A stretch of DNA of 64,000 nt from Escherichia phage vB_EcoM_RZ: sequence record MW598459; one strand, written 5' to 3'. The notes under the pieces were generated by a model. The model searched no databases. It worked only from the letters and a program-made list of their open reading frames with translations, and had not been told where the DNA came from. The position numbers and the translations under genes were made by a program. Below, in pieces: positions 41,545 to 47,480 of this stretch. Every line of letters begins with the position of its first letter. Position 1 is the stretch's first letter.

Positions 41545-41566
41545 AAAGGGCCGAAGCCCTTTCCTT
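41541..41566 (-). terminator. Intrinsic terminator (GGGC-CGAA-GCCC plus T-run) after nrdB
   Basis: GC stem with tetraloop followed on the minus strand by TTTTTGT. Confidence 0.6.
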
Positions 41567-42743
41567 ATAGATATTTACGGAAACCAGCAAGAACGTTCTC
41601 ATCGACGTCATTGTCAATCTGGGCTACCAGGTAAGCAGACAACTCAACTTCTTGTGGTGCTGATTGCACATTATCAGAGTTAAGATATTCGCGAATCCAT
41701 GGAATCGGGTGCTTAGTAGATTCTAACACGATTTCACACGGGAGACCGCATTGCTTCATACGAGAAACCGTCAGGTAATCGATGAACCGGTTAAGAATCT
41801 CGACGCTCAGCCCAGGGAGTCCACCATCTTTAAACAGATGCACGGCCCATTCTTTTTCCTGGCGATTAACTTCCATGAAAATGGCTGCGGCTTCTGCTTC
41901 ACATTCGTGAGCGATTTTAACCCATTCGTCACCGTCAACACCAGTCTGCAGCTGACGAAGAATATATTGGGTCCCCTTAAGGTGGAGCTGTTCATCACGG
42001 GCGATGAACTTCATTATCTTCGCATTGCCTTCCATGATTTCCATGTTCTTATGGAAGTTGAAAGTGCAAGCAAAAGATACATAAAAACGAATAGCTTCCA
42101 GGGCATTAATGACATGCAGACAGAGATAAAGAGACTTCATCAATGCTCGTTTGGCGATAGCTTCTTGTTTGATAGCTCGTTCCAAACGTTCGTCCGCTTC
42201 GGGAGTTTCTTTGGCCAGTTCAACAAAAGCAATCTGGTTTTGCCATTGACGAGTTTTATTCAGAACATCATCATAGTAATGGCCAATGGATTCTGCACGC
42301 TTCATGATTGCATCATCTAACAGGATTTCGTCGAATACCTTCGCCGGGTCCGTATAGAGATTTCGCATGATGTGCGTATAAGAACGAGAGTGAATTGTCT
42401 CGCTGAATGTCCAGGTCTGAATCCATGTATCAAGACTTGGGTCAGAAACTAATGCGGCTAATGCTGCAGCTGGAGCACGACCCTGGATACTATCCAGAAG
42501 TGATTGGTATTTCAGGTTGTTGGTAAAAATATTTTGTTGATGTTCAGGAAGCTTATTAAATTGAGCTCCGTCCATCATCAGGTTTACTTCCTCTGGACGC
42601 CAGAAGAATGATAATTGCTTTTCTGTTAATTCTTCGAAAACTTTATGACGCTGGATATCATAACGGGCAATCCCCAATCCTGAACCGAAGAACATTGGCT
42701 CGGCTAAAACATCCACCGGAGTGGTATTAAAAACTGTACTCAT
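41565..42743 (-). CDS. nrdB: Ribonucleotide reductase beta (small) subunit NrdB, intron-less
   Basis: 392 aa continuous ORF (T4 NrdB is 388 aa after splicing); di-iron class Ia features; T4 nrdB carries a group I intron, absent here. Confidence 0.93.
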   Translation of the reverse strand: MSTVFNTTPVDVLAEPMFFGSGLGIARYDIQRHKVFEELTEKQLSFFWRPEEVNLMMDGAQFNKLPEHQQNIFTNNLKYQSLLDSIQGRAPAAALAALVSDPSLDTWIQTWTFSETIHSRSYTHIMRNLYTDPAKVFDEILLDDAIMKRAESIGHYYDDVLNKTRQWQNQIAFVELAKETPEADERLERAIKQEAIAKRALMKSLYLCLHVINALEAIRFYVSFACTFNFHKNMEIMEGNAKIMKFIARDEQLHLKGTQYILRQLQTGVDGDEWVKIAHECEAEAAAIFMEVNRQEKEWAVHLFKDGGLPGLSVEILNRFIDYLTVSRMKQCGLPCEIVLESTKHPIPWIREYLNSDNVQSAPQEVELSAYLVAQIDNDVDENVLAGFRKYL

Positions 42744-43468
42744 TTATTAACCTTTATCCTTCCTCTGACCCATCCATCGGGGATAATTTCAGAGGATTCA
42801 ATTAATTTATTTGTAAACCCGTCATTAATACAGATTTTACCACGGGCACCTTTATATTGTCGTGGAGTTATTTTATCAAATGTGGGTTGAAGCGAATATG
42901 ACCATCTAAATCCATAGGCATATTGAAATTTTCCACTCGCACAATACTTGATGTTTGATGCGTTTCCATTTACGGACCGAGCTGCTTCTTGCAATGACCT
43001 AAATTTTTCAACAAATTCACCATCAAGAGTAAATTGATAAATTTCTGTAGATGGAACAGCTAACTTATTCTTTTCACTTACAATTTGCTTAGATTCTTCA
43101 CTGTGATGCTTACCCAACATACCACGGGGATGTGGGTTATTTTTCCAGTGTTCCTTAAAGAATTCAGAATTTGCTTTGGCAAATAGCTTTCGATGGAAAC
43201 TATACAAGTTATTATTAATACGATTTCCAGCTTTATCCGTTGCCATTAAAGTTAGGGCCGAGACCAATCCAAAATGACCGGGATTTATTTTGCATAAAAG
43301 CAAATGAGCAATAAAATGTTCTCGAGCTGTTAACTCGACAAGGTTTGTTCTTTCATCAGTACCGCCCATACATCTTGGGATAATATGATGAATCTCTTTA
43401 TATTCGGTTAAAGGTTCCCGGGTTTTACCCCGGGATATTAAATTATTATAAATGTTTTGATAATTCAT
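42740..43468 (-). CDS. mobE: Free-standing HNH homing endonuclease between nrdA and nrdB (MobE-like)
   Basis: 242 aa; HNH motif EIHHIIPRCMGGTDERTNLVELTAREHFIAH; same intergenic position as T4 mobE; TAATG overlap with nrdA and ATGA overlap with nrdB. Confidence 0.8.
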   Translation of the reverse strand: MNYQNIYNNLISRGKTREPLTEYKEIHHIIPRCMGGTDERTNLVELTAREHFIAHLLLCKINPGHFGLVSALTLMATDKAGNRINNNLYSFHRKLFAKANSEFFKEHWKNNPHPRGMLGKHHSEESKQIVSEKNKLAVPSTEIYQFTLDGEFVEKFRSLQEAARSVNGNASNIKYCASGKFQYAYGFRWSYSLQPTFDKITPRQYKGARGKICINDGFTNKLIESSEIIPDGWVRGRIKVNK

Positions 43469-46361: not shown

Positions 46362-46423
46362 AATAGGAAGTTAAGCCCGACCATTACGGCCAGAAATAAA
46401 ATACCGGCAATTTGAATTTTCAT
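46358..46423 (-). CDS. Candidate hydrophobic micro-protein (21 aa), translationally coupled on both sides
   Basis: Hand-translated MKIQIAGILFLAVMVGLNFLL; its ATG overlaps the upstream stop (TAATG) and its TGA overlaps the downstream ATG (ATGA). Confidence 0.35.
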   Translation of the reverse strand: MKIQIAGILFLAVMVGLNFLL

Positions 46424-46620
46424 TATACCTCGACAATAAACCAGATAGACCGATTGAAATCATCATATTCATACGATTTAATCACACGCATAACATAAAG
46501 TTCTTTGTTCTGGACAAAAATCGTTGTTTTCTCTTTAGGCAGTTCATCGAGACTTATGTTCATTTTTTCAAACAGCACCTCATTGGTGCCGTATCTATTG
46601 TTTACTATACGAATATTCAT
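46423..46620 (-). CDS. Hypothetical protein (65 aa)
   Basis: ORF immediately downstream of td with 1 nt overlap. Confidence 0.45.
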   Translation of the reverse strand: MNIRIVNNRYGTNEVLFEKMNISLDELPKEKTTIFVQNKELYVMRVIKSYEYDDFNRSIWFIVEV

Positions 46621-47480
46621 TAGACCGCCATCGGGGCTGCGATTGTAGGATGTGGCTCATAGTTTTCCAGAACAAAATCACCCGGAGTCATATGACGAGT
46701 TACCCAATATAACTGCATTTCAGTGTCCCATAACTGGAACTGTTCAGGCCAATTGATTTTCAGAGTTGGCAGAGCCTTCGGTTCACGGCGCAGGACTTCT
46801 TTACATTGCTCGATGTGGTTAAGATAGATATGCGTGTTGCCACCCATGAATACTAACTTACCAGGCTTTAGTCCAGTCATTTTGGCGACAATATGCAAAA
46901 GTGTACCATAAGAGCCAATGTCAAACGGAAGACCCAGGAATACATCAACCGAACGCTGATACCATAAAAGGTCAAGCTCACCATCGTGTACGTTAAATTG
47001 GTAGAGCAAATGACAAGGAGGCAGAGCCATTTGTTTCAGTTCAACCGGGTTCCATGCGGACACAATCTGACGACGGTCGGTCGGAACTTTCTTAACTTTC
47101 TCGATGGTCTCAACCAGCTGGTCAACCCCACCAAAATCACGCCACTGTTTACCATACACTGGACCCAGTTCACCATCAACATAACCTAATGCACGACCTT
47201 GTGCTTCAAAGTTCTGGTCCCAGATAGTCTTTTTATCAGAGCCAGCGCCATGAGTAATTTCACGGAGACGTTCAACGTTAGTGGAACCTTCCAGGAACCA
47301 CAGAAGCTCACCAACCACAGATTTGTATGCCAAACGTTTAACGGTCGTTGCTGGGAAGCCTTCAGACATGTCCCACTCAACTTTGGTGCCAAATGTCGCG
47401 ATAGTACCAGTCCCTGTGCGGTCGTCAGTCTGATAGCCAATGTCAAATACAGTTTGAATCAAGTCTTGATAATTTTTCAT
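46620..47480 (-). CDS. td: Thymidylate synthase Td, intron-less
   Basis: 286 aa continuous ORF, same length as spliced T4 Td; conserved active-site region (ALPPCH); T4 td is interrupted by a group I intron, absent here. Confidence 0.95.

Follow-up and report, generated by a model that had tools for sequence, protein, structure and literature searches.

In bacteriophage T4 the genes for thymidylate synthase (td) and for the small subunit of ribonucleotide reductase (nrdB) are interrupted by group I introns associated with the endonucleases I-TevI and I-TevIII, and free-standing homing endonuclease genes occupy gaps between conserved genes. One of these, mobE, lies between nrdA and nrdB, and its start codon overlaps the nrdA stop codon as UAAUGA (PMC2988022). 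The MobE protein nicks nrdB of phage T2 at nucleotides (nt) 122-126, and an intrinsic terminator located ~30 nt into T4 mobE has been verified experimentally (PMC2790892). A second gene, segG, is placed at the 32/59 site by Table 1 of PMC2988022, which cites Liu et al. 2003 for cleavage of gene 32 by its product; the same paper cites Sandegren et al. 2005 for the replacement of mobE at nrdA/nrdB by other endonuclease genes, such as Hef in phage U5. In both endonuclease and intron content T4 is an outlier (PMC2988022; PMC2993671 Table 5).

Here we analyze a 64,000-nt stretch of Escherichia phage vB_EcoM_RZ (record MW598459; hereafter the window), with emphasis on td, nrdB and three open reading frames (ORFs) for putative free-standing homing endonucleases. 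The window, including its 5.9-kilobase td/nrdB region, is collinear with genomes of Gaprivervirus, T4 relatives within the Tevenvirinae. Its closest record is Escherichia phage DK-13 (Gaprivervirus), which is collinear throughout the window at 96-98.8% nucleotide identity; no identical record was found among those matching. The gene order is that of T4 (17, 18, 19, 20 ... alc, rnlA, denA, nrdB, nrdA, td, frd ... 32, 59, 33, dsbA, rnh, 34-38). The names of the genes flanking the endonuclease ORFs (gp18/gp19, nrdA/nrdB and gp32/gp59) were taken from the DK-13 annotation.

With a probability of roughly 80%, we conclude that the window belongs to a Gaprivervirus-type relative of T4 in which td and nrdB lack introns, as is common, and in which three free-standing homing endonuclease cassettes with proposed homing roles fill gaps beside conserved essential genes. 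For the three cassettes the analysis shows what the genes are and where they lie, which motifs and folds they conserve, that they are polymorphic for presence/absence, and that alternative alleles occupy their sites. This inventory is the normal pattern already described for the phage group and contains nothing categorically new; among the three endonuclease genes, only the family found between genes 18 and 19 is mildly new.

Intron-less td and nrdB, and the genes mobE and segG

The features on which this section rests are the following.

46620-47480, minus strand: td (thymidylate synthase), intron-less, 286 amino acids (aa); Pfam Thymidylat_synt, E=1.6e-90; equivalent of the T4 intron insertion site at 46932|46931
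41565-42743, minus strand: nrdB (ribonucleotide reductase small subunit), intron-less, 392 aa; Pfam Ribonuc_red_sm and phrog_86; equivalent of the T4 intron insertion site at 42068|42067
42740-43468, minus strand: mobE orthologue, free-standing HNH gene with NUMOD1, 242 aa, ATG start; phrog_655, E=6e-58; NUMOD1, 34.8 bits
43416-43435, minus strand: hairpin TCCCGGG-GTAAAA-CCCGGGA inside the 5' end of mobE (mobE nt 34-53), with a GC stem of 7 base pairs (bp)
51312-51950, minus strand: segG orthologue, free-standing GIY-YIG-type gene, 212 aa, TTG start; between gene 32 (50351-51262) and gene 59 (51947-52600)

The initial annotation described td and nrdB as continuous and of spliced length, and alignment with T4 bears this out. 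The td gene is a single ORF whose 286 aa equal the length of the spliced T4 product. When it was compared by blastn with the genomic T4 td, the alignment broke exactly at nt 549|550, the site of the 1017-nt T4 intron, and the corresponding junction in the window (46932|46931) reads ATTCCTGGGT|CTTCCGTTTG. Similarly, nrdB is a single ORF of 392 aa (T4, 388 aa; T2, 392 aa) that runs uninterrupted across the T4 splice junction as FYVSFACTFNFHKNM, with TCTTTTGCTT|GCACTTTCAA at 42068|42067. Neither gene therefore holds an intron at the equivalent of the T4 site: both ORFs are continuous and there is no non-coding insertion. A search with Rfam at gathering thresholds likewise reported no group I intron in the window, but the T4 td and nrdB introns used as a positive control (T4 136000-148000) were equally missed, and the Rfam result therefore carries no weight; at this setting the tool is unsuited to ruling out ORF-containing introns in phages.

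All three endonuclease ORFs lie at the intergenic positions, and between the flanking genes, that had been assigned to them initially. What had gone unrecognized is that two of the three are T4's own mobE and segG, at exactly the loci they occupy in T4 (by position and orthology; PMC2988022 Table 1).

The ORF between nrdA and nrdB is a full-length mobE orthologue at its canonical site rather than a novel insertion. Its product shares 73.5% aa identity with RB3 MobE over 238 of 242 aa (E=5e-123), an allele also present in many Tequatroviruses, and is 98% identical to its counterpart in TH15, 96% to that in P8 and 62% to the DK-13 allele; the homologues always lie directly downstream of nrdA. 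The start codon overlaps the nrdA stop by 1 nt (TAATGA) and the stop codon overlaps the nrdB ATG (ATGA). The residues H27-H28, N42 and H51 (EIHHIIPRCMGGTDERTNLVELTAREH) align with the HNH motifs of McrA and of a group II intron maturase, indicating that the motif is intact.

A hairpin is found at an equal position near the 5' end of mobE in T4, RB3, TH15, P8 and DK-13, where the stem sequences differ yet stay complementary. The hairpin in the window corresponds to the internal terminator of T4 mobE and, by analogy, would act in the same way. The gene is probably co-transcribed with nrdA and translationally coupled to it through the TAATGA overlap, and its expression is probably damped by this hairpin.

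Comparison with relatives delimits the insertion precisely. In the window mobE replaces exactly the 38-bp nrdA-nrdB spacer of the empty sites in UPEC01, SP18 and VR26, and the T2 site is likewise empty, with a spacer of 51 bp. Across the genus, genomes with an empty site occur beside genomes with one of three different mob-type alleles, represented by the window, TH15 and P8, by DK-13, and by P479. The P479 occupant, a 213-aa protein with HNH and NUMOD3 domains, is labelled 'hypothetical protein' (L006 2176-2817). In DK-13 the gene is annotated as 141 aa followed by an unannotated gap of 302 bp, and tblastn revealed an uninterrupted frame of ~241 aa (DK-13 57599-58324); DK-13 mobE is thus under-annotated in GenBank and should be corrected.

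The ORF between genes 32 and 59 is segG at its canonical site, already annotated as such in a relative, and not as a novel insertion. Its product is 100% identical to the annotated SP18 segG product, shares 40% identity with T4 SegG from residue 1 to ~200 (E=1e-45) and matches phrog_7504 ('homing endonuclease') with E=3e-91. The gene overlaps gene 59 by 4 nt. In alignment its TTG start takes the place of the ATG at codon 1 of T4 segG, and SP18 and DK-13 have the same TTG. A start further downstream is excluded, as the first catalytic motif already opens at residue 4. Together with the GTG start of the third ORF, which is supported by comparison with RB3, this confirms the two non-ATG starts proposed initially.

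For a model of SegG the best structural match was the GIY-YIG catalytic domain of I-TevI, indicating an N-terminal domain with a GIY-YIG-like fold. The family-invariant residues Y5, W6, Y22-I23-G24, E76 and N93 fit the GIY...YIG...E...N pattern.

The ORF between genes 18 and 19

The third gene belongs to an unnamed family, and its classification depends on the following features.

3018-3623, plus strand: free-standing zinc-ribbon and HNH-like nuclease gene, 201 aa, GTG start; between gene 18 (971-2950) and gene 19 (3819-4310)
2951-3632, plus strand: cassette of 682 bp carrying this ORF, starting right after the gene 18 stop and replacing 21 bp of the SP18 empty site (blastn against SP18 and VR26)
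2983-3005, plus strand: inverted repeat GCGCGTAT...ATACGCGC enclosing a match to the T4 late-promoter consensus, TATAAATA (2993-3000), followed by the Shine-Dalgarno sequence AAGGA and the GTG start

The product belongs to PHROG 5104, which is listed as 'unknown function'. The GTG start and its Shine-Dalgarno sequence are kept in the 45%-identical RB3 allele, and TATAAATA is a predicted late promoter, judging from the known T4 consensus. In an alignment of 21 homologues two groups of residues are invariant: the cysteines C51, C54, C73 and C76, which weakly match treble-clef/zinc-ribbon models, and a D153-H154 ... N176 ... N185-R186 block. The best structural matches were HNH nucleases, with a beta-beta-alpha-metal fold in which a conserved histidine is placed as the general base and the asparagine and metal-ligand residues are likewise conserved. 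Searches with sequences gave less: a profile search of the PDB found the zinc ribbon only and no HNH domain, a single-sequence search found nothing significant, and only one of the 21 family members touches the Pfam model HNH_4 (E=0.078). We assign the protein to the HNH class with moderate confidence.

Homologues are present in 234 phage records. In all ten of the contexts inspected (this window, DK-13, VR26, RB3, Klebsiella Roth77, Acinetobacter AbTZA1, Pectobacterium POP12, Shewanella Thanatos-2, a metagenomic contig and Sinorhizobium phiM19) the ORF lies immediately after the tail-sheath gene. These contexts span the Straboviridae and an Emdodecavirus, phiM19, in which the downstream gene is not the tube gene. 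The site is empty in SP18 and T2, and T4 was absent among the tblastn matches listed. T2's single 'other HNH' gene (PMC2993671 Table 5) was considered as a possible member and rejected, the T2 18/19 site being empty. Alleles diverge strongly even inside a single genus: relative to the window, the VR26 allele is 36% identical, and the T6-type and RB3-type alleles are 58% and 45% identical.

Sequences flanking the cassette are also locally more divergent. Against VR26, the final 110 nt of gene 18 in the window (2841-2950) contain 24 mismatches, compared with 0-11 in any other 110-nt block of the gene, and the start of gene 19 (3819-3900) contains 11 mismatches in 82 nt against both SP18 and VR26. 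This pattern is compatible with a region of co-conversion or immunity. On the sequence evidence, the ORF bears the marks of a free-standing homing endonuclease, of an unnamed family, with a target in a neighbouring conserved gene. Equipped with its own late-promoter-like sequence, it would most likely target the 3' end of gene 18 or the 5' end of gene 19 in phages with an empty site.

The principal alternative is that this ORF is not a homing endonuclease at all, but an optional accessory gene of the tail module, or a nuclease acting against host or rival DNA, that is inherited vertically with gene 18 and has been lost repeatedly. Such a history would suit its strict placement beside the sheath gene in very distant phages, including phiM19 with its different downstream gene, and the late-promoter-like sequence suggests expression together with the structural genes. 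The absence of any Pfam or curated annotation, and labels such as 'head morphogenesis protein' or 'type II restriction endonuclease' in some records, point the same way. However, the window and VR26 ORFs share only 36% aa identity while their gene 18 sequences are 93-96% identical at the nucleotide level, and the end of gene 18 is a local hot spot of divergence between alleles. Moreover, the cassette is sharply bounded, taking the place of 21 bp of the empty site, and the HNH-type fold and motif are typical of free-standing phage endonucleases. We consider the accessory-gene explanation unlikely, though it is the strongest of the competing accounts.

If the ORF is instead a homing endonuclease, as we favour, then PHROG 5104 may represent an uncharacterized, widespread family of free-standing zinc-ribbon/HNH homing endonucleases that would home to the end of the tail-sheath gene. 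The family extends over several Straboviridae genera and at least one Emdodecavirus. Combined with a possible deviation of mobE from the T4 target and immunity paradigm (see below), this is a tentative proposal to which we give slightly less than an even chance. No paper describing or characterizing a member was found in the literature searched, and the homologues are labelled inconsistently in the records, as hypothetical, head morphogenesis or restriction enzyme proteins. Its members are candidate new homing endonucleases whose target, a structural gene of the tail, would be unusual; the family is the only part of the inventory that might repay experimental work.

Mobility of the cassettes and history of the introns

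Nuclease activity, target sites and actual homing are inferred for the three cassettes. By analogy with the T4 enzymes, MobE would nick nrdB of co-infecting phages that lack mobE, which would then be copied in through recombinational repair, and SegG would cut gene 32 of phages without segG. The site in nrdB that corresponds to the mapped MobE nick can be located in the window.

42618-42622, minus strand: equivalent of the MobE nick site mapped in T2 (nrdB nt 122-126; nick position from PMC2790892)

This site falls within a hot spot of polymorphism. Among the Gapriverviruses compared, nrdB nt 1-200 (window 42543-42743) are 82-86% identical, against 93-100% elsewhere in the gene. The four alleles found are distributed independently of what occupies the nrdA/nrdB site, so repeated gene conversion around the nick region is plausible. 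For the same reason we rejected an nrdB immunity polymorphism linked to mobE in this genus. P479 and TH15 have a common nrdB 5' allele, although TH15 holds the window type of mobE and P479 another gene.

Several observations weigh against the assignment of these genes to homing endonuclease families or against the homing roles proposed for them. The labels HNH and GIY-YIG that had been given at the outset stand as far as the structure-level evidence for endonuclease-type genes is concerned, but Pfam supports no label for two of the three. The mobE product scores 18.1 bits with the Pfam HNH model, below the cut-off of 21.4 bits. The ORF between genes 18 and 19 has no Pfam HNH match at E<=10 and no Pfam match of any kind. 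No Pfam GIY-YIG domain was found in SegG of the window, nor in T4 SegG; no residue of the SegG family could be assigned as the canonical GIY-YIG arginine, and neither hhalign of the family nor single-sequence and profile searches of the PDB linked SegG to I-TevI significantly. T4 MobE (141 aa) can be aligned with MobE of the window over its first 108 aa only (54% identity); since the homology is confined to these residues, the specificity of the T4 enzyme cannot be transferred to it. Finally, while nt 121-128 of nrdB in the window are identical to T2, nt 91-146 are identical to those of SP18, and differ from those of UPEC01 at nt 96 only, both of which have an empty site. Either this MobE allele has another target or those relatives are already immune, and the homing cycle in this genus is therefore putative. 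A weaker point that follows is that the target or the self-immunity mechanism of this mobE allele may differ from the T4 paradigm.

A competing view is that the three ORFs derive from endonucleases but are no longer mobile, and persist because they embed promoters or ribosome-binding sites of neighbouring essential genes, or serve as exclusion weapons or regulators. In T4, promoters of nrdB and gene 32 do lie within mobE and segG, so that loss of these endonuclease genes is selected against (PMC2790892, PMC2988022). In the window, the 3' end of mobE contains the nrdB Shine-Dalgarno sequence and a MotA-box-like sequence (TTCGCTTCA, 12 nt, TAAAAT), which are predicted to act in nrdB translation and as a promoter, respectively; the shared nick region of nrdB in SP18 and UPEC01 would also be in line with a loss of mobility. 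However, all three ORFs are full length and retain every family-invariant motif residue, and empty sites together with several divergent alleles per locus within one genus argue for continuing turnover rather than fixation. Immobility of the three ORFs is in our estimation improbable, somewhat more so than an accessory role for the ORF between genes 18 and 19, and we retain the interpretation of the cassettes as homing endonuclease genes.

The initial annotation further proposed that the locus records which mobile elements the phage has kept or lost. All three cassettes are present or absent among close relatives, as expected of mobile elements, but a history of keeping and losing elements is not supported. 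Of the T4 introns, at coverage of at least 80%, that of td was found in 197 phage records and that of nrdB in 118, mainly T4-type (Tequatrovirus) records, whereas 855 records match this region. In none of the 30 closest (the best 30 of the 855) is td or nrdB longer than in the window, so the comparison gives no grounds for inferring loss. Absence of both introns is the majority, default state among T4 relatives, and the alignments gave no trace of loss. A phage that once had both introns, lost them precisely and kept its free-standing endonucleases is conceivable in principle, and T4 mobE mobilizes the nrdB intron in trans (PMC2790892), such that a mobE-positive lineage could once have held it, but this is very improbable given the absence of extra length in all 30 closest records, the concentration of the introns in Tequatrovirus, and exon sequences around both insertion sites that are ~70-77% identical to T4, as in the rest of the genes, with no T4-like conversion tract seen in the alignments to T4.

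It is plausible that td and nrdB are potential homing targets for the T4 introns, as had been suggested. At the td site the CNNNG cleavage motif is intact (CAGCG), and of the 46 bases of the T4 homing site 37 match, compared with 40 of 46 in the intron-less T2 td. With endonuclease probes in tblastn, no homologue of I-TevI or I-TevIII was detected in the window. Nine such probes revealed no further endonuclease paralogue, and a PHROG scan of ten further window ORFs of unknown function gave no endonuclease match.

Two segments of the window that are absent from DK-13 were considered as endonuclease candidates. The first, of ~780 bp (31194-31974), was rejected: its ORFs (31141-31506 and 31578-31946) belong to PHROGs 1582 and 1507, of unknown function, and give no nuclease signal. 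Its content is typical of a hypervariable region. The second, of ~190 bp (48410-48597), was also rejected; the overlapping ORF (48396-48815, 139 aa, GTG start) has no PHROG match. Conversely, DK-13 has an extra mob-type gene directly after uvsW, encoding 231 aa with HNH and NUMOD3 domains (L002 16297-16992), that is absent from the window (~16230-16245) and constitutes a fourth endonuclease polymorphism between the two. The remaining features concern the neighbourhood of nrdA.

43468-45723, minus strand: nrdA (ribonucleotide reductase large subunit), directly upstream of mobE; Pfam Ribonuc_red_lgC, E=1.4e-133, and ATP-cone

Between nrdA and td (45757-46620) lie three small ORFs, one DUF5496/nrdA.2-like, one DUF4326/nrdA.1-like and a second paralogue of 65 aa (PHROG 2458). 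SP18, VR25 and VR7 lack this block and VR20 lacks part of it, an insertion/deletion polymorphism with no relation to the endonucleases.

Comparison with described systems

In summary, the analysis provides a correct mobile-element inventory for one more T4-like phage. It adds little beyond the published picture and fits it: introns are rare, even the closest relatives differ in which free-standing endonucleases they have, and the nrd genes and gene 32 are favoured targets. Relative to the td intron with I-TevI and the nrdB intron with I-TevIII of T4 and RB3, the host genes and the codons at the insertion sites are conserved here, whereas both introns are missing.

The mobE gene resembles its T4 and RB3 counterparts (Wilson and Edgell 2009, PMC2790892) in locus, orientation, TAATGA overlap, a hairpin ~30 nt into the gene and the HH...N...H motif. 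It differs from T4 in its C-terminal NUMOD1 DNA-binding part, which resembles RB3, and from both phages in that the nrdB downstream of it has no intron. Moreover, nrdB at the nick site mapped in T2 is T2-like here, and common to relatives with an empty site. The variable occupancy of the nrdA/nrdB site in this genus, empty or with one of three endonuclease alleles, recalls the Hef-type replacement in U5 as cited in PMC2988022; unlike in that case, all three occupants are mob-type HNH genes (phrog_655) and none is hef-like.

SegG of the window shares with T4 SegG its locus, 40% identity over the whole protein, a near-identical N-terminus (M/L-N-V/I-V-Y-W-F-T-F-E) and the GIY-YIG-like N-terminal fold. 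The differences are a TTG instead of an ATG start, the 4-nt overlap with gene 59 and a weakly similar C-terminal half, such that target specificity may differ.

For the ORF between genes 18 and 19, the appropriate comparison class is that of the 'other HNH' putative homing endonucleases counted in T4-related genomes (PMC2993671 Table 5). Like the small HNH nicking endonucleases (Gme HNH, 4H9D; phage GVE2 HNH, 5H0O) it has a D-H...N...N motif in the expected beta-beta-alpha arrangement, but unlike them it is detected by no Pfam HNH model. Its accessory zinc ribbon is common to many phage HNH enzymes, among them those described in PMC3592412; as far as that account goes, these adjoin the terminase gene or cos site, while the ORF described here lies directly after the tail-sheath gene.

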